Part shown: piece after piece, positions 28,843 to 38,267 of the stretch
How the letters are laid out: every line of letters starts with the position of its first letter
Position numbering within the stretch: the first letter of the stretch is position 1
Assembly: GCA_902610585.1 (NCBI GenBank)
Contig: CACLWE010000001.1
Coordinates: 3,922 to 67,921 of the forward strand
Source of the DNA: an uncultured Pelagibacteraceae bacterium
Lineage (GTDB): Bacteria; Pseudomonadota; Alphaproteobacteria; Pelagibacterales; AG-422-B15
Length of the DNA: 64,000 nucleotides
Direction of reading: 5' to 3'
The notes under the pieces: generated by a model
What the model was told of the DNA's origin: nothing
Seen by the model: the letters and a program-made list of their open reading frames with translations, nothing else
Databases searched by the model: none
Position numbers and translations under genes: made by a program

Positions 28843-30246
28843 ATGAGTACTCCAAAGACATTATATGATAAAATATGGAATGATCATTTAGTTTCAGAAA
28901 ATGAAGATGGAACATCAATCATTTATATTGACAGACATCTTGTCCATGAAGTTACAAGTCCCCAAGCATTTGAGGGACTAAAAATTGCAAACAGATCAGT
29001 TAGAAAACCTAATTTTACATTAGCCACTGCTGATCACAATATTCCTACAACAAATAGAGATGAGGGAATATCAGATCCAGAGTCTAAGTTACAGGTAGAT
29101 ACTCTTGAAGAGAATTGTAAAGAGCACGGAATTACTTTTCTTTCTATGTCTGATAAAAGACAGGGCATAGTTCATATTATCGGACCGGAGCAAGGTTTCA
29201 CACAACCAGGAATGACTATCGTTTGTGGTGATAGCCATACGTCAACACACGGTGCCTTCGGTGCTCTTGCATGGGGAATTGGAACTTCTGAAGTAGAACA
29301 TGTTCTTGCAACTCAAACATTGGTACAAACTAAAGCTAAGAATATGCAAATTAATATACAAGGTGAACTGCCACTGGGTGTCACAGCAAAAGATATTGTT
29401 TTAAAGATTATTCAAACAATTGGAACTGCTGGAGGTACTGGATATGTTATTGAATACACAGGTGATGCGATCAAATCCCTAACAATGGAGGGAAGAATGA
29501 CTGTCTGTAACATGTCAATTGAAGCGGGAGCAAGAGCTGGTTTAATCAGTCCTGATGAAAAAACAATTGAATACTTAAAGGGTAGACCATTTTCTCCAGC
29601 AGAAAATGAATATCAATCAGCGTCAGATTATTGGTTATCGCTAGCATCTGATGAAGGTGCTGCTTATGACAAAACAGTAAATATTGATGCAAGCGATATC
29701 ATTCCGCAAGTCACATGGGGCACAAGTCCTGAGGATGTCGTTTCGATTGATGGATTGGTTCCAAACCCTGAGGACGAAAGGGATGAGACAAAGAAAAAAT
29801 CAATGATTAGAGCTTTGGAATACATGGGTCTTGTTCCGAACACACCACTTAAAGAGGTGAAAGTAGATAAGGTATTTATTGGTTCATGCACAAATGGACG
29901 GATTGAAGACTTGAGAGCTGCATCCAAAATTGCAAAGGATAGAAAAGTTGCGGACCATGTAAATGCAATAATCGTTCCTGGGTCCGGTTTAGTTAAACAG
30001 CAGGCAGAAGAGGAGGGTTTGGATAAAATATTTATTGAGTCAGGCTTTGAATGGAGAGAGCCCGGATGTTCAATGTGTCTTGCAATGAATGCTGATAAAC
30101 TTAAACCTCAAGAAAGATGCGCTTCCACTTCAAACAGAAACTTTGAAGGTAGGCAAGGAAGAGGAGGTCGTACTCATTTAATGAGTCCAGCTATGGCTGC
30201 TGCCGCGGCTATCAATGGAAAACTATCAGACTGTAGAGAGATATAA
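28843..30246 (+). CDS. leuC: 3-isopropylmalate dehydratase large subunit
   Basis: 'HEVTSPQAF', 'CGDSHT', 'GSCTNGR', 'GCSMCLAMN'. Confidence 0.98.
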
Positions 30247-30872
30247 TGGAAAAATTTAAAAAAATAGAAAGTAATGCAATTCCTTTACCAATGGTGAATG
30301 TTGATACTGATATGATCATTCCAAAACAATTTCTCAAAACAATTAAGCGAACAGGTTTAGGTAAAAATTTATTTTATGAATTAAGATATGATGAAAAAGA
30401 TGCACCCATAGATTCGTTTGTCCTTAATCAAGATAAATATAAAGACTCTCAAATTTTGATTACTGGTAAAAATTTTGGCTGCGGGTCATCTCGTGAACAT
30501 GCTCCTTGGTCAATCTTAGATTATGGTATTAAATGCATCATCGCTTCGAGCTTTGCGGATATCTTTTATAATAATTGTTTCAAGAATGGTATTCTTCCAA
30601 TCAAATTAGATGAGTCTGAAGTAACTAAATTACAAAAAGCAGCTGAAAACAGTCTTAGTTTTACAATTGATTTAGAAAATCAGAAGATTTCTTATTTTGA
30701 TAAAAATATAAATCATGAGGTAAGTTTTGAACTTGATAAAGCCAAAAAAACTAGCCTATTAGAGGGTTTAGATGATATTGGATTGACACTAGCTAAAGTT
30801 AATCATATTTCTGATTTTGAAAATAAGCAAAAGTCAACAACACCCTGGTTGTATAGCCAACAAATAAAATGA
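30246..30872 (+). CDS. leuD: 3-isopropylmalate dehydratase small subunit
   Basis: '[13 protein letters not shown]', '[13 protein letters not shown]'. Confidence 0.98.
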
Positions 30873-31978
30873 GCAATTCTTATAAATTATTAGTCTTACC
30901 TGGCGACGGTATAGGGCCTGAAGTAATGAAGGAGGTCATAAAGGTTGCTAAGAGTATTGGTGAACTTAGTAAAGTTAAATTTGAGATAGAAGAGGACTAT
31001 ATTGGTGGATCTGCCTATGATCGCTATGGCACCCCTCTATCTGATGAGACTCTTGAAAAAGCTAAAAACTCTCACGCAGTTTTACTTGGTGCTGTGGGTG
31101 GAGAAAAATGGGATAATTTAGATTTTTCTCTTAAACCTGAACAAGGCCTTTTGAGAATTAGAAAAGAATTAGACTTGTTTGCAAACTTAAGGCCTGCTCT
31201 ATGTTTTGAGTCAATGGTTGACGCCTCTTCTCTTAAACCAGACTTAGTATCAGGTCTCGATATATTAATTGTTAGAGAACTTACCGGTGGTATTTATTTT
31301 GGTGAACCAAGAGGTATTAAAGATAAAGGTAACGGAAATCGTATTGGAATTAACACTCAATCCTATAGCACTAATGAAGTTAGAAGAGTTGCACGAATAG
31401 CATTTGAACTTGCAAGTAAAAGAGGTAACAGGGTTACTTCATGTGAAAAATCAAATGTGATGGAGTCTGGAATATTGTGGAGGGAAGAAGTGTCTTATGT
31501 GCACGAAAATGAATATTCTAATGTCGAGTTATCTCATATGTATGCAGATAATTGTGCGATGCAATTAGTTAGAAACCCCAAACAGTTTGATGTTATTGTT
31601 ACTGATAATTTATTTGGAGACATTCTGTCAGATGAGGCGGCCATGCTCACAGGTTCGCTTGGAATGTTGCCCTCTGCTTCTTTGGGTGCAGTCGATAGTA
31701 ATAATTTTAGAAGGTCTTTATACGAGCCAGTTCATGGGTCTGCACCGGACATAGCTGGCAAAGGAATAGCAAACCCAATTGCATCTATTCTTAGTTTTGC
31801 AATGTGTTTAAAGTACTCATTCAATATGGACAAGGAATCAGATCTTATAAATAAGGCTGTAAATAATGTACTTGCCAATGGCTTTAAAACTGCGGATTTA
31901 ATAGGTGATAATAACAAAAACCTATCAACAGTTGAAATGGGTGATCAAATATTAAATCAATTGAAAGAAAACTTTTAA
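30869..31978 (+). CDS. leuB: 3-isopropylmalate dehydrogenase
   Basis: 'PGDGIGPE', 'NLRP', 'RELTGG', 'NLFGDILSD', '[12 protein letters not shown]'. Confidence 0.98.
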
Positions 31979-31981
31979 ATT

Positions 31982-32998
31982 ATGAATTTTAATATTGCTA
32001 TAGTGGGTGCCACAGGAAATGTTGGAAGAGAAATGTTAAATATTCTCTCTGAAAAAAAATATGATGCGTCAAAAATATTTCCTGTAGCTTCTAGTAGAAG
32101 TGAAGGCATGGAAATTGAATTTGGGGAGGATAAACTAATTGTAGAATCTATTGAAAAGTTTGATCCTTCAAAAGTAGAATTGGCACTCTTCTCAGCAGGA
32201 GCTAGTACCTCAAAGGAATGGGCACCAAAGTTTGCAGAAAAAAACTGTATTGTTATAGATAACTCTAGTCATTTTAGAATGGAAGAAGAAATTCCTCTGG
32301 TTGTGCCTGAGGTTAACCCAAGTGATCTAAATAATTATAAAAAAAGAAATATAATTGCTAATCCAAACTGCTCAACAATTCAATTGGTGGTTGCCTTAAA
32401 ACCATTGCACGAAATTTCAAAAATAAAAAAAGTTATTGTATCAACTTATCAATCTGTTTCGGGTGCAGGTAAGGCTGGTATGGACGAGTTGTTTGAGCAA
32501 ACAAAAAATATGTTCTCTGATGATATTAAAGATAATGTTAAGTTTACCAAACCAATTGCCTTTAATGTCATACCTCATATTGATAAATTCATGGATGATG
32601 GATATACAAAAGAAGAATTAAAAATGAGACAAGAAACTCATAAAATTTTAAGTAGTGAGATCAGCTTTAGCGCTACATGTGTTCGCGTTCCTGTATTTAT
32701 TGGTCACTCTGAAGCTGTAAATATTGAGTTTGAAAACAAAATTTCAGTAGAAGAAGCACGTGAAGCTATTAAAAATGCTCCTGGATGCACACTACTTGAT
32801 GAAAGAGCTGATGGAGGTTATGTAACTCCAAAAGAGTGTGCAGGAAATGATGACACGTATGTATCGCGAATTCGAGAGGATACGTCTACAAAAAATGGAT
32901 TATCTATTTGGATAGTTTCTGATAATTTAAGGAAAGGTGCTGCTTTAAATACAATCCAAATCGCTGAAATGCTAATTGAGGAACATTTATCTAAATGA
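31982..32998 (+). CDS. asd: Aspartate-semialdehyde dehydrogenase
   Basis: 'GATGNVG', 'ANPNCSTIQ', 'TYQSVSGAG', 'DNLRKGAALN'. Confidence 0.98.
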   Translation: MNFNIAIVGATGNVGREMLNILSEKKYDASKIFPVASSRSEGMEIEFGEDKLIVESIEKFDPSKVELALFSAGASTSKEWAPKFAEKNCIVIDNSSHFRMEEEIPLVVPEVNPSDLNNYKKRNIIANPNCSTIQLVVALKPLHEISKIKKVIVSTYQSVSGAGKAGMDELFEQTKNMFSDDIKDNVKFTKPIAFNVIPHIDKFMDDGYTKEELKMRQETHKILSSEISFSATCVRVPVFIGHSEAVNIEFENKISVEEAREAIKNAPGCTLLDERADGGYVTPKECAGNDDTYVSRIREDTSTKNGLSIWIVSDNLRKGAALNTIQIAEMLIEEHLSK

Positions 32999-34953
32999 GA
33001 CAAGATGTAAGAAAACCAAGAAGAAGTGTACTTTATGTTCCTGGATCTAATCCAAAAGCATTAAAAAAAAGTAGTACGCTTGATGTAGATGCAATTATTT
33101 ACGACTTAGAAGACTCGGTTGCTGCAAATGCCAGAAATGATGCACGCACAGCAATTATCGAAATTATAAATTCTGGTGTAAACAAAAATAAGGAGCAGGT
33201 GATAAGAGTAAATGCTTTGGATACTGATGATGGTAAAATAGATATTAAGGTCTTGGACAAATGTAATCCCGATGCAATATTAATCCCTAAAGTAAATGAA
33301 GCTAAAGATGTTAAAGCTTTTGAAAAACATCTTAAAAATAAAGAAACTAAAATTTGGGTTATGATGGAAACAGCTTTATCCATTGTAAACGCGTATGATA
33401 TTGCAAAATCATCAAAATATTTAAAATGTTTTGTAATGGGAACTAATGACTTGTCTGCAGAGTTGGGTATAGAGGAAGAACTGAAAAGAACTGCATTAGT
33501 CACAAGTTTTGAGAAATGTATGATGGCGACAAAAGCCTACAAATTATCACTACTTGATGGAGTTTTTAATGACATCAGAGACGCTAATGGCTTTGAAGAA
33601 GAGTGCATCTATAGTCATGGTCTTGGATTTGATGGTAAAACCTTAATACACCCCGGACAAATACAAATATGCAATAAAATATTTACCCCTACGGCTGAAC
33701 AACTAGACAAAGCAAAACGAATTGTTGCAGCCTTTGAGGATGCAAGAAAAAAGGACCCAAATGTTGGAGTAATTACGTTTGAAGGCAGTCAGATAGAGGA
33801 ATTACACGTAAATCATGCAAAACGAATTATAGAAGCAGAATTGCTTGTTTCAAAAGTTACAAAACTAGATCAATCAGAAGTTATACAAACTTCTTCAAGT
33901 AAATATAAAATTGGTAATTTTTTTGAAAATTTTAAGTTAGGACAAAAAATAATACACGCAACTCCACGAACAATAACATATGGAGATTGTGCACTTTATA
34001 CAGCTTTATACGGTTCAAGGTATGCCTTGCACTGCTCAGATGAGTTTGCAAAAAAACTCTCATTAGAAAAATCACCAATTGACGATTTTCTTTTATTTAA
34101 CATAGCTTTTGGTAAAACTGTCCCAGATATCTCTTTAAATGCAATTGCCAATTTAGGTTACGCAGAGTGTAAGTTTTTAAAGCCAGCTTATCCAGGAGAT
34201 ACAATTAGTTCAACTTCAGAAGTGATTGGCATTAAAGAGAATTCAAGTGGAGAAAATGGGGTAGTCTATGTTCACTCTGTAGGCACTAACCAGCATGACG
34301 AACCAGTTATTGATTATAAAAGATGGGTTATGGTTAGAAAAAAAAATAGAAATCTAAATAAAGCAGAACCGTCTATACCGGAATTAAATAAAGAGCTTAC
34401 AAGTGAGGAGGTTGTAGAAATTGCAAAAAAATATGATTTTGATTGTGCAGGATATGATTATAAAGCCTCAGGCTCTGATCTTTGTTATGAGGATTATTCT
34501 ATTGATGAAAAAATAAATCATATTGATGGTATGACAGTTGAAGAGGCTGAACATATGATGGCAACAAAATTATACCAGAACAATGCAAAAGTTCACTTTA
34601 ACCATTTTGTTGAAAAAGGTGGCAGGTTTGGAAAAAGAATTGTTTATGGTGGTCACGTTATAAGTTTAACAAGAGCTTTATCGTTTAATGGACTTTCAAA
34701 TGCTTTTAAAATTATTGCGATCAACGGTGGAACTCACGCATCACCGTGTTTTGCTGGAACAACTGTTTTTGCTTGGAGTCTGATTTTAGATAAAGTCGAA
34801 GTATCAGAATCATTAGGTGCTATTCGAATCAGAACAAATGGAATTGGTGATGCACAGGCTTATCAGTTTCAACATCAAGATAGTAACAAGCGCTTTGATC
34901 CGTCCGTTTTGTTAAGTCTTGATTATTGGGCTTTAATTCCAAGAAAAAAATAA
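32995..34953 (+). CDS. Fusion protein: CitE/Mcl2-type (malyl-CoA thioesterase/lyase) domain + mesaconyl-CoA hydratase (Mch, double MaoC) domain
   Basis: N-half 'RSVLYVPGS..DLEDSV..RVN..PKV..MMET..GTNDL..GFDGKTLIHP..IEELH'; C-half 'GNFFENF..HATPRT..SDEFA..FGKTVPDISLNAIANLGY..RWVMVRK..YQNNAKVHFN..YGGH..NGGTH'; one uninterrupted frame. Confidence 0.9.
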   Translation: MRQDVRKPRRSVLYVPGSNPKALKKSSTLDVDAIIYDLEDSVAANARNDARTAIIEIINSGVNKNKEQVIRVNALDTDDGKIDIKVLDKCNPDAILIPKVNEAKDVKAFEKHLKNKETKIWVMMETALSIVNAYDIAKSSKYLKCFVMGTNDLSAELGIEEELKRTALVTSFEKCMMATKAYKLSLLDGVFNDIRDANGFEEECIYSHGLGFDGKTLIHPGQIQICNKIFTPTAEQLDKAKRIVAAFEDARKKDPNVGVITFEGSQIEELHVNHAKRIIEAELLVSKVTKLDQSEVIQTSSSKYKIGNFFENFKLGQKIIHATPRTITYGDCALYTALYGSRYALHCSDEFAKKLSLEKSPIDDFLLFNIAFGKTVPDISLNAIANLGYAECKFLKPAYPGDTISSTSEVIGIKENSSGENGVVYVHSVGTNQHDEPVIDYKRWVMVRKKNRNLNKAEPSIPELNKELTSEEVVEIAKKYDFDCAGYDYKASGSDLCYEDYSIDEKINHIDGMTVEEAEHMMATKLYQNNAKVHFNHFVEKGGRFGKRIVYGGHVISLTRALSFNGLSNAFKIIAINGGTHASPCFAGTTVFAWSLILDKVEVSESLGAIRIRTNGIGDAQAYQFQHQDSNKRFDPSVLLSLDYWALIPRKK

Positions 34954-35001
34954 TTTACTGTCGTTTAATCACCGGCAATTTGGTATATATAAATATTACT
35001 A

Positions 35002-35379
35002 ATGAGCAGTCCCTTATCACCACATTTGCAAGTTTATAGATGGCAAATTACATCAATACTATCAATTCTTCATAGAATAACGGGCATAGTTTCATCATTA
35101 GGTGTAATCATATTAATAATATTTTTATATTCAATTAGCGCTGGCGAAGAAACTTTTCAATTTATAATTTCCTTATCAGAAAATATTTTTATAAGAACAA
35201 TATTAATAGGTCTTACGTTTTCATATTTGTTTTATTTTTTAAACTGCTTAAGGCACTTATTTTGGGACGTTGGTATTGGGCTTGAATTAAATACTGCCAA
35301 ATTGACAGGTTGGATTACAATTTTGTTTACTGTTTTGCTCACTGTTCTATTTTGGTTTTTAATTATGATTGGATATTAA
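35002..35379 (+). CDS. sdhC: Succinate dehydrogenase cytochrome b556 subunit
   Basis: 'PLSPHLQVY', 'SILHRITG', 'RHLFWD'. Confidence 0.95.
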   Translation: MSSPLSPHLQVYRWQITSILSILHRITGIVSSLGVIILIIFLYSISAGEETFQFIISLSENIFIRTILIGLTFSYLFYFLNCLRHLFWDVGIGLELNTAKLTGWITILFTVLLTVLFWFLIMIGY

Positions 35380-35381
35380 CT

Positions 35382-35711
35382 ATGTCTGCCAAAAATACTT
35401 GGAAACTTCATCGATGGAGCACGATTTTACTACTACCACTCGTTGCTTATTTATTCATAAAAATAATACACCTTTCCACTCTGCCATATCAATTAATTTT
35501 GAGTGAATTAAGCAACTTATGGGGTGTAGGGTTTATATTGATTTTCACGGTCTTAGGATTAATTCATATGAATACAGGTGTGCACGAAATCCTTGATGAT
35601 TATGTTCACTCTGATGTGGTTAAAAGGATATTAAATGTAATAATTTCAATATTTTTTTTACTAATACTAATTTTTGTTTGTTTGTCTCTACTACTAATTT
35701 TTATAGGTTAA
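35382..35711 (+). CDS. sdhD: Succinate dehydrogenase hydrophobic anchor subunit
   Basis: Start placed at MSAKN; 'W..HR', '[11 protein letters not shown]'. Confidence 0.92.
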
Positions 35712-35715
35712 CTTA

Positions 35716-37491
35716 ATGAATTACGAAATTGAATATCACGATTACGATGTAGTTGTTGTTGGTGCTGGTGGATCTGGTTTGAGAGCGACAGTAGGTGCTG
35801 TTGAGAATGGTTACAAGACTGCTTGTATTTCAAAAGTATTCCCAACCAGAAGTCATACGGTTGCAGCACAGGGAGGCATCTCTGCTGCGCTTGGAAATAT
35901 GGGTGATGATGATTGGAGATGGCACATGTATGATACCGTGAAAGGCTCTGATTGGCTTGGGGATCAGGATGCAATTGAGTATTTGTGCAAAAATGCACCA
36001 AAAGCTGTTTTAGAATTAGAGAATTATGGAGTTCCATTTAGTCGAACAGAGGATGGAAAAATTTATCAAAGAGCCTTTGGAGGGATGACCAAAAATTATG
36101 GTCAAGGTACTGCACAAAGAACATGTGCTGCTGCTGATCGAACTGGCCATGCAATAATTCATACTTTATACGGGCAATCATTAAAACACGACGTTGACTA
36201 TTATATTGAATATTTTGTTTTGGACTTATTAATGGTTGAGGGTGAATGCAGGGGTGTTGTTGCATGGTGTTTAGAGGACGGTAAATTACATGTATTTAAT
36301 TCTAAACAAACAATACTAGCATCTGGTGGATATGGCCGTGTTTATTTTTCTGCAACTTCAGCTCACACCTGCACAGGCGATGGTAACGCTATGGTTTTAA
36401 GAGCTGGCCTACCTCTACAAGATATGGAATTTGTTCAATTTCATCCAACTGGTATTTATGGCGTTGGTTGTCTTATAACAGAGGGCGCAAGAGGAGAAGG
36501 CGGTTATTTAGTAAACAGTGAAGGCGAACGTTTCATGGAGAGATACGCACCATCAGCGAAAGACTTAGCTTCAAGAGATGTTGTTTCTCGTTCTATAACA
36601 AAAGAAATTTTAGAGGGTAGAGGTGTTGGCAAAGATAAGGATCATGCTTATCTACATCTTGATCACATAGACTCAGATATATTGGAAGAAAGATTGCCCG
36701 GTATTTCAGAGTCCGCAAAAGTTTTCGCAGGAGTTGATGTAACTAAAGAGCCAATTCCAATTATACCTACAGTTCATTATAATATGGGTGGAATTCCAAC
36801 AAATTTTCATGGAGAAGTAATGAACCTTGAAAAAGGAAATGAAACAGTCGTACAGGGTTTGATGGCAGTTGGTGAAGCTGCTTGTGTGAGTGTTCATGGT
36901 GCAAATAGACTCGGATCAAATTCTCTAATTGATTTAGTAGTTTTTGGCAAAGCAGCTGCAGATAGAATAAATGATACGGTAAATAAAGATGAACCAAATA
37001 AGGAAATTCCCAGTCACGTCATCGATGAAGTCATTGCAAGGTTTGATAGTACACGATCTTCTGATGGGGATATTTCAACTTCAGAATTAAGGTCTCAAAT
37101 GCAGAGAGTTATGCAGAAACACTGCGCTGTTTTTAGAGATGATGAGATTATGTCTGAAGGAAAAAAACTTATCGAAGAAACTTGGTTAAACTCAGAAAAT
37201 ATTAAAATTAAAGACAAATCACTTATATGGAATACTGATTTGTTAGAAACACTTGAATATAAAAACCTAATTGCACAAGCTGTAGTTACAATGAACTCAG
37301 CACTAAATAGAAAAGAAAGTAGAGGGGCTCACGCTCGAGAAGACTATAAGGAAAGAGACGATAAAAATTGGATGAAGCATACAATGTCATGGCTGAACGA
37401 TAAGAGTTGTGAATTGGATTATAGATCAGTTCACGAATACACATTATCAAACGAAGTTAAATATATTGCGCCAAAGGCCAGAGTTTATTAA
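35716..37491 (+). CDS. sdhA: Succinate dehydrogenase flavoprotein subunit
   Basis: 'GAGGSG', '[10 protein letters not shown]', 'QFHPTG', 'HYNMGG', 'HGANRLG'. Confidence 0.99.
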
Positions 37492-38267
37492 TGGTTCAGT
37501 TTAATCTTCCCGACAATTCTAAATTAACAGACGGTGATTATTACAAGTCTGAAAAAAGCAATGGAAATAGTAAAAAATTCAAAATCTACCGTTGGTCTCC
37601 CGACGATGGGAAAAACCCAAGGATGGACACTTATGAAGTTGATCTAGACGATTGTGGTCCGATGGTATTGGACGCAGTTATGAAAATCAAAAGTGAAATT
37701 GATACTTCATTAACCTTTAGACGATCATGTCGCGAGGGCATATGTGGTTCTTGTGCAATGAATATTGATGGGACAAATACACTTGCTTGTACCAAAGCAA
37801 TTAGTGATGTGAAAGGTGACATAAAAATTTATCCTCTGCCTCACATGCCAGTTATAAAAGACTTGGTTACAAATTTAAAAACACTCTATAAGCAATTAAA
37901 GTCCATCAAGCCATGGCTTATGAATAAGAAACAAAACGCAAACGATACTGAAAATATTCAATCAAGAAATGACCGTGAAAAATTAGATGGCTTGTATGAA
38001 TGCATCTTGTGTGCATGTTGCTCAACTTCATGCCCAAGTTATTGGTGGAACAGTGACAAATATTTGGGCCCTGCAGTCCTGCTTCAGTCATATCGCTGGT
38101 TACAAGATAGCCGTGATGAGGAAAGAAAAGAGAGATTAAAAGAATTAGATGATACGTTTAAAGTTTATAGATGCCATACAATAATGAACTGCACTCAAGC
38201 TTGTCCAAAAGGTCTCAACCCCGCAAAGGCTATTGCTGGTATCAAACAAATGATAGCACAGCAGTAA
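37491..38267 (+). CDS. sdhB: Succinate dehydrogenase iron-sulfur subunit
   Basis: '[10 protein letters not shown]', '[12 protein letters not shown]', 'CHTIMNC...CP'. Confidence 0.99.

Follow-up and report, generated by a model that had tools for sequence, protein, structure and literature searches.

A probable lineage-specific fusion of an Mcl2-type thioesterase and mesaconyl-CoA hydratase in a SAR11-type marine family

Closest described systems and the fused gene

The malyl-CoA thioesterase Mcl2 of Rhodobacter sphaeroides (RSP_0970; EC 3.1.2.30) is a free protein encoded near mch, the gene for mesaconyl-C1-CoA hydratase, in a genome that has the ethylmalonyl-CoA (EMC) pathway and a separate malyl-CoA lyase, Mcl1; the locus tags of mcl2 and mch lie three apart (RSP_0970 and RSP_0973) and the genes are unfused (PMC6747724). 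Here, we describe a gene that joins an Mcl2-type domain and an Mch domain in one chain of 652 aa. It lies in a 64,000-nucleotide stretch of contig CACLWE010000001.1 (assembly GCA_902610585.1) from an uncultured Pelagibacteraceae bacterium; this whole stretch is called the window, and positions are numbered along it unless another contig is named. The gene is likely to be a lineage-specific fusion of two non-consecutive steps of the EMC pathway, the Mcl2 thioesterase and Mch, which arose through loss of a stop codon and yields a bifunctional single chain. Its parts are as follows.

32995 to 34953, + strand: whole fused gene mcl2-mch, a single ATG-to-TAA frame of 652 aa plus stop (open reading frame listing, translation)
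32995 to 33855, + strand: N-half, residues 1 to ~287, a CitE-like TIM barrel of Mcl2 type (Pfam HpcH_HpaI, residue columns and the Glu-for-Asp rule)
33856 to 33900, + strand: interdomain linker, residues ~288 to 302, with low identity, low predicted local distance difference test score (pLDDT) and no equivalent in the split gene pair of genus g6
33901 to 34950, + strand: C-half, residues 303 to 652, a double-hotdog mesaconyl-C1-CoA hydratase, Mch/MeaC (matches to PDB entries 4e3e and 8hgn, PF19315 and site residues)

The frame contains no internal stop in its 652 codons and ends with TAA at 34951-34953. This confirms the single frame reported by the first-pass annotation, a reading of the letters that preceded the present analysis, and the translation also bears out its description of the linker stretch (AELLVSKVTKLDQSEVIQTSSS, residues ~282-303) as free of both Met and stop codons. 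Its division into a CitE-like N-half and an Mch C-half stood as well, but the hydratase begins at residue ~303 (nt 33901) and not at nt ~33890.

Each half has a well-described counterpart. The N-half resembles R. sphaeroides Mcl2 in being a CitE-like barrel of ~285-295 aa with a Glu in the lid and the Mg and Arg residues kept, and in the company it keeps in the genome, but it forms the N-terminal part of a 652-aa chain, whereas Mcl2 is free. The C-half, on the other hand, resembles Mch/MeaC (4e3e, 8hgn; MeMeaC of Methylorubrum extorquens) over the full double-hotdog length, with the site residues conserved, but where the standalone enzyme has a free N-terminus, the linker and the Mcl2 domain are found. 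Mcl1 belongs to the same superfamily as the N-half and has the same metal and Arg residues, but differs by an Asp in the lid and by an insertion of ~40 residues. Another single chain combining Mch with a CitE-like domain is the metagenomic protein P0132 (725 aa), in which the order is reversed, an N-terminal Mch (4e3e, E 1.1e-92) being followed by a malyl-CoA lyase of Chloroflexus type with an Asp lid (4l7z, E 1.4e-99); the steps that it combines are consecutive ones of the 3-hydroxypropionate bi-cycle type, and its origin is unrelated to that of the window's fusion. In the literature searched by listings and abstracts, no paper describing an Mcl2-Mch fusion was found, in keeping with the first-pass annotation, which knew of no characterised enzyme of this architecture. 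What is new is the architecture only, because the families of both halves and the pathway are already known; it is a fusion of neighbours, not new chemistry.

The uninterrupted chain and its split relatives

A lost stop or a frameshift in one assembly would also give a single frame, and the high-GC metagenomic fragment P0142, which covers such a junction and looks frameshifted, indicates that artefacts of this kind occur. Against an assembly or sequencing artefact, the same uninterrupted, full-length frame was found in 39 of the 59 other genomes of the family (33 in genus g1, five in g5 and one in g7), at 74-100% identity and with lengths of 652-669 aa, and two further fused copies end at contig boundaries. 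Close relatives are thus not all split, a point that the first-pass annotation had left to an architecture search. The family-wide search returned a match at E <= 1e-30 in 46 of these 59 genomes, distributed as 34 of 46 in g1, all six in g5, one of two in g7 and all five in g6, where the match consists of two genes. The genomes counted here are incomplete assemblies, from single cells or metagenomes, of related species and are mutually non-independent. The fused form was also present in 39/39 SAR11-type loci of a genome contig scan, whose species set overlaps the family genomes, and all 120 protein-search matches listed carry both domains in the fused form, at 78% identity or more.

Evidence from sequencing runs points in the same direction. 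At least 20 runs, drawn from 17 studies and without exception labelled as marine, seawater or plain metagenome, contain the stretch 33500-34300. Four RNA-library runs, belonging to four studies, supplied contigs that were aligned to 32900-35100, and three of these contigs (X15 record 1, 3101 nt; X16 record 6, 2206 nt; X20 record 25, 245 nt) bridge the linker gap-free, so that the junction, for which confirmation by reads had been suggested, shows neither a stop nor a frameshift. The sole indel listed in these contigs is one inserted base at 34337 in a single low-depth contig, and the 38 listed in-frame substitutions are divided into 31 synonymous and 7 non-synonymous changes, with no stops. 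The artefact reading is refuted for practical purposes, and we grant it a negligible probability.

The linker behaves differently from the domains that it joins. In a set of 11 fused proteins representing three genera, pairwise identity averaged 0.38 across residues 283-302 but 0.82 in each domain, and the length of the linker differed by 1-2 residues. An AlphaFold2 model of the fused protein, built from a 36-row alignment, gave a mean pLDDT of 90.6, with values below 50 only at residues 1-3 and 294-302, such that the linker is the only disordered stretch between the domains in the model. Its predicted TM-score (pTM) of 0.57 is as expected for what the model depicts as two rigid domains on a flexible tether.

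Split forms of the gene pair exist both within and outside the family, and they are alike in order, strand and synteny in g6 and in other, mostly alphaproteobacterial, genomes. In the three g6 loci read, mcl2 ends with TAA or TAG and the ATG of mch follows 3-5 nt later, the two genes being in the same frame in one locus and in different frames in two. The g6 proteins share 54-57% identity with the N-half and 67-69% with the C-half. The standalone g6 Mcl2 ends where the window protein has residue ~287, and g6 Mch starts at ~301, which indicates that ~14 linker residues were gained in the fused forms. Outside the family, 38 non-SAR11-type loci were kept by the genome contig scan, most of them titled as alphaproteobacterial metagenome-assembled genomes; in 22 of them, mch is preceded on its own strand by an Mcl2-like gene, always as a separate gene, and the other 16 have only mch within the 3-kb flanks. 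In the 22 split loci, the upstream stop and the first position of the hydratase match are 0-175 nt apart in 21 cases and 860 nt apart in the remaining one, and, unlike the fused forms, the split pairs have a stop and a spacer between the genes and no linker.

No same-order fusion was found outside the family among these 38 loci and the best 150 of 14,001 matches (50%-identity representatives), a list in which any same-order fusion whose halves were as distant as the standalone matches should have appeared, since it would score above them. The single full-length same-order fusion among those best 150 matches belongs to the same family (78% identity). P0142 (289 aa, 50% identity), the high-GC fragment mentioned above, was considered as a second same-order fusion and rejected, its junction and C-terminal end departing from the conserved motifs as a frameshift would make them; it probably reflects a sequencing error. 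The simplest history, as far as sequences tell, would be one loss of stop and spacer inside this SAR11-type family. In the proposed scenario, adjacent mcl2 and mch, which in their split form are probably translationally coupled, would have lost the stop and the 3-5 nt spacer between them once, with the gain of ~14 linker residues.

The two domains and their proposed reactions

The N-half matches PF03328 (HpcH_HpaI) over residues 10-220 with 145.6 bits (cut-off 25; E 1.7e-42), and its residues 6-280 match solved structures of malyl-CoA lyase (5ugr, E 4.8e-37), human CLYBL (5vxc, E 2e-34) and other CitE-like proteins. A catalytic Arg and Asp, two Mg ligands and a Glu-Asp pair are described as kept throughout the CitE-like superfamily and the malate synthases, the sole exception reported there being the cluster of the R. 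sphaeroides malyl-CoA thioesterase, in which a conserved Glu replaces the lid Asp (Asp299 of MCLR) (Zarzycki and Kerfeld 2013, PMC3832036). The N-half retains the superfamily residues E39, D40, R71, E125 and D152, each conserved in 71-73 of 73 aligned rows, and from the 5ugr alignment and PMC3832036 we infer that E125, D152, R71, E39 and D40 are equivalent to MCLR E141, D168, R76, E44 and D45. At the lid position, the alignment places Glu268 (nt 33796-33798) within the motif QIEELH (residues 266-271). The same column holds Glu in 71 of the 73 aligned sequences, among them the second fused representative and 69/69 standalone N-half-like 50%-identity representatives, nearly all of which read E-x-L-H, and Asp occurs only in the genome's own Mcl1-like protein (LIDAAS) and in the lyase part of P0132. 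Two further Mcl2-like proteins with a Glu lid are extended at the C-terminus in other ways, P0187 (868 aa) by a Mitofilin-like region and P0180 (395 aa) by DUF1737.

The N-half also lacks a structural hallmark of the lyases. Its alignment with 5ugr falls into two stretches (6-156 with 11-171, and 174-280 with 212-316), skipping ~40 lyase residues (172-211) that match the MCL-specific insertion named in PMC3832036, and it is ~287 aa long versus 326 aa for the Mcl1 of the same genome. Neither the catalytic lid Asp nor the ~40-residue barrel insertion of malyl-CoA lyases is thus found in it. Two other identities were rejected by their equivalog cut-offs: CitE (TIGR01588), for which the N-half scored 196 bits against 443.4, and the itaconate-degradation pair, with 159 bits against 375 for RipC_Ccl and 92.9 bits against 340 for RipB_Ich. 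In a quick maximum-likelihood tree of 78 rows, arbitrarily rooted and without R. sphaeroides Mcl2 among the rows, the six fused N-halves group together (SH-like approximate likelihood ratio test, SH-aLRT, 99), with the standalone proteins of g6 as their neighbours (99); all of these fall within a Glu-lid group of 76 rows, which is separated from the two Asp-lid rows (99). An assignment of the N-half to the Mcl2 type, that is, to a putative malyl-CoA thioesterase (EC 3.1.2.30), is supported at the level of sequence.

Assignment of the C-half is more direct. Pfam places MC_hydratase (PF19315) on residues 305-600 and MaoC_dehydratas on residues 315-426, residues 301-651 cover PDB 4e3e from end to end (E 3.4e-128), and residues 305-650 match 8hgn, a beta-methylmalyl-CoA dehydratase (E 4e-116). 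The match to solved Mch proteins is thus full-length and at the level expected of an orthologue, which predicts Mch/MeaC activity (EC 4.2.1.148). The substrate site described for MeMeaC consists of F71, S79, N85, R142, N226, H231, Y248 and G249, with K113 binding CoA and N226 and H231 as the putative catalytic pair (PMC10164722). All nine residues have a match in the C-half (F372, S380, N386, K414, R443, N529, H534, Y551 and G552), with identical spacing for the first five and an offset of +2 for the last four, and each is the majority residue in Mch-containing sequences (15-22 of 22 rows).

What the two halves catalyse, which substrate the N-half takes and what is gained by the fusion are all inferred. 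The single chain would have two independent active sites, both serving the EMC pathway of acetyl-CoA assimilation. The C-half would hydrate mesaconyl-C1-CoA to beta-methylmalyl-CoA, which the separate Mcl1 would cleave into glyoxylate and propionyl-CoA; Mcl1 would then condense glyoxylate with acetyl-CoA to (S)-malyl-CoA, and the N-half would hydrolyse malyl-CoA to malate and CoA, pulling the pathway forward. Since the reactions of Mcl1 sit between the hydratase and the thioesterase, the fused steps would bracket Mcl1 and be non-consecutive. The likely benefits would be a fixed 1:1 dosage, one start and one stop fewer, economy in a compact genome and a commitment to malate release.

Physical fusion usually links consecutive steps, and this makes it reasonable to ask whether the N-half acts instead on beta-methylmalyl-CoA, as lyase or thioesterase, giving a channelled two-step enzyme that would interconvert mesaconyl-CoA with glyoxylate and propionyl-CoA or release free beta-methylmalate. 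The CitE-like fold is capable of both lyase and thioesterase chemistry (PMC3832036; bioRxiv 10.1101/2024.09.25.614871), and the reverse-order Mch-lyase fusion P0132, known from metagenomes, makes the idea biologically sensible; going by its domains, the channelled hydratase-lyase imagined in the first-pass annotation exists as that other protein. For the window's protein, however, channelling is unlikely. The N-half has the Glu of the thioesterase cluster and neither the Asp nor the ~40-residue MCL insertion of the lyases, a dedicated and highly conserved Mcl1 is encoded elsewhere in the genome, and the split orthologues, in g6 as in the 22 mostly alphaproteobacterial loci outside the family, are ordinary neighbouring mcl2 and mch genes. 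Hydrolysis of beta-methylmalyl-CoA would, moreover, drain the EMC pathway: joined in one chain to the producer of beta-methylmalyl-CoA, a thioesterase is harmless only as long as it leaves this compound alone. R. sphaeroides Mcl2 reportedly does not use beta-methylmalyl-CoA, a result attributed to Erb et al. 2010, and this was counted against channelling. The first-pass annotation had considered both possibilities; channelling finds no support, given the dedicated Mcl1 and the missing Asp and insertion, its reading of the lid motif as closer to Mcl2 than to the Asp-bearing Mcl1 lyases was upheld, and the fusion of non-consecutive steps during streamlining, its other proposal, gains support from the g6 genomes, where mcl2 and mch lie 3-5 nt apart in the same synteny.

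Another view would treat one half as a decayed passenger and the fusion as effectively monofunctional, the N-half, for example, only aiding oligomerisation while another enzyme hydrolyses malyl-CoA. Such a view can point to the fact that both activities are deduced and that IMG names the fused protein only 2-methylfumaryl-CoA hydratase, but it appears very improbable. The catalytic and metal-binding residues are all kept in both halves, the halves are equally conserved among the fused genera (0.82 and 0.82 mean identity), the listed variants are mostly synonymous over the whole frame, and neither a malate synthase nor a CitE-like gene besides Mcl1 was found in the genome as a substitute.

The bifunctional reading could be extended to a fused chain that acts as a scaffold recruiting the Mcl1 oligomer, with beta-methylmalyl-CoA, glyoxylate and malyl-CoA passing between three active sites without build-up, although we regard this as doubtful. 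Trimers have been reported for malyl-CoA thioesterase (PMC3832036) and for MeMeaC (PMC10164722), and with both parent enzymes trimeric, a three-fold symmetric assembly is possible. If true, the scaffold would protect the two B12-dependent mutases of the pathway, because malyl-CoA inactivates human methylmalonyl-CoA mutase (bioRxiv 10.1101/2024.09.25.614871). A complex prediction for the fused protein with the genome's Mcl1 scored 0.02 versus a mark of 0.32, which speaks neither for nor against binding.

Several points weigh against the interpretation of the gene as a bifunctional fusion of non-consecutive steps. The N-half was placed in the Mcl2 cluster by the published Glu signature, its size and its context and not by a tree with R. 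sphaeroides Mcl2, and the substrate range attributed to that enzyme is the one reportedly found by Erb et al. 2010. Human CLYBL, in which the Asp is retained, is still an efficient malyl-CoA thioesterase (bioRxiv 10.1101/2024.09.25.614871), and the Asp/Glu residue alone therefore does not decide the chemistry. The Mch residues were mapped from the spacing of motifs and not from an alignment with MeMeaC, which makes the mapping partly deduced. RNA-library contigs may include DNA and prove neither a single transcript nor a single polypeptide. Finally, 13 of the 59 family genomes had no match; in the five g1 genomes among them that were checked (G068, G061, G014, G058 and G002, one with a completeness rating of 94%), the search found no C-half and no neighbouring asd, so that the region is probably unassembled there and gene loss, considered as an explanation, is unsupported for these five.

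Pathway context and meaning for the family

The fused gene is embedded in a conserved co-directional array, identified from the open reading frame listing.

28843 to 38267, + strand: leuC-leuD-leuB-asd-[mcl2-mch fusion]-sdhC-sdhD-sdhA-sdhB

The ATG of the fused gene shares 4 nt with the stop of asd upstream, and sdhC begins 48 nt downstream. The order leuCDB-asd-x-sdhCDAB was found in three g6 genomes, with x split, and in one genome each of g5, g7 and g1, with x fused. Genes are tightly packed over 28843-38267, with one shared base between leuC and leuD and between sdhA and sdhB and 4-nt overlaps between leuD and leuB and between asd and the fusion; such packing fits a genome that tolerates stop loss between neighbours easily.

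Other genes of the EMC pathway occur elsewhere in the window's genome (G000; 1.21 Mb, 25 contigs, 76.8% complete). The check covered ccr, ecm, mcd, mcl1 and mcm, all of which are present, the first four having been named in the first-pass annotation as genes to look for. The separate Mcl1, of 326 aa, matches 5ugr with E 1.1e-126 and 4l9y with E 1.9e-106. The ccr gene, at G000:C1:92106-93272 and thus outside the window, scores 558 bits against an equivalog cut-off of 378.55. Divergently placed beside it is a 651-aa ecm-like mutase below the equivalog cut-off for methylmalonyl-CoA mutase, and also beside it is a 551-aa mcd-like acyl-CoA dehydrogenase with an N-terminal extension of ~160 residues; ecm and mcd are assigned by size and position and not by an equivalog model. 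A second MM_CoA_mutase gene, a 731-aa frame, would represent mcm. The cluster at G000:C1:88949-96415 (loci L024 and L021) comprises the mcd-like dehydrogenase, a PduO-type cob(I)alamin adenosyltransferase, ccr, the 651-aa ecm-like mutase and a 217-aa esterase, the B12 adenosyltransferase being placed between mcd and ccr. This gene set is that of the EMC pathway as given for R. sphaeroides and Paracoccus denitrificans (PMC6747724). A search of the window's genome, at its 76.8% completeness, found neither isocitrate lyase nor malate synthase. Two small contigs of this ~33% G+C genome, C21 (2967 nt, 52% G+C) and C24 (2472 nt, 51%), stand out in composition and may be rRNA pieces or foreign sequence.

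The two families of the order contrast strongly in this respect. Of 59 genomes in the window's family, 46 gave a match for ccr and none for isocitrate lyase; of 141 in the sister family, none gave a match for ccr and 110 (including the unpublished G115) did so for isocitrate lyase. Judging from gene content, the window's SAR11-type family appears to use the EMC pathway in place of the glyoxylate shunt of the sister family. A literature search by titles and abstracts found no paper on the EMC pathway in SAR11.

The fusion offers a clean natural case in which two non-consecutive steps have been joined by stop-codon loss in a streamlined genome, and because the split ancestral form persists in a sister genus, fused and split forms are directly comparable. 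In M. extorquens, the thioesterase is down in methanol-grown cells and up on acetate, and it would be deleterious in methylotrophy, when feeding the serine cycle (PMC2948502). Set beside this regulation, a fixed 1:1 fusion of thioesterase and hydratase suggests a pathway dedicated to C2 assimilation, from acetyl-CoA to malate. Automatic annotation names only 2-methylfumaryl-CoA hydratase for the fused protein (IMG), and the thioesterase step is therefore easily missed in metabolic reconstructions. From an ecological point of view, the fused gene flags an abundant SAR11-type marine family with the EMC pathway, which bears on the mode of C2 assimilation in these bacteria and on their B12 and CO2 requirements.

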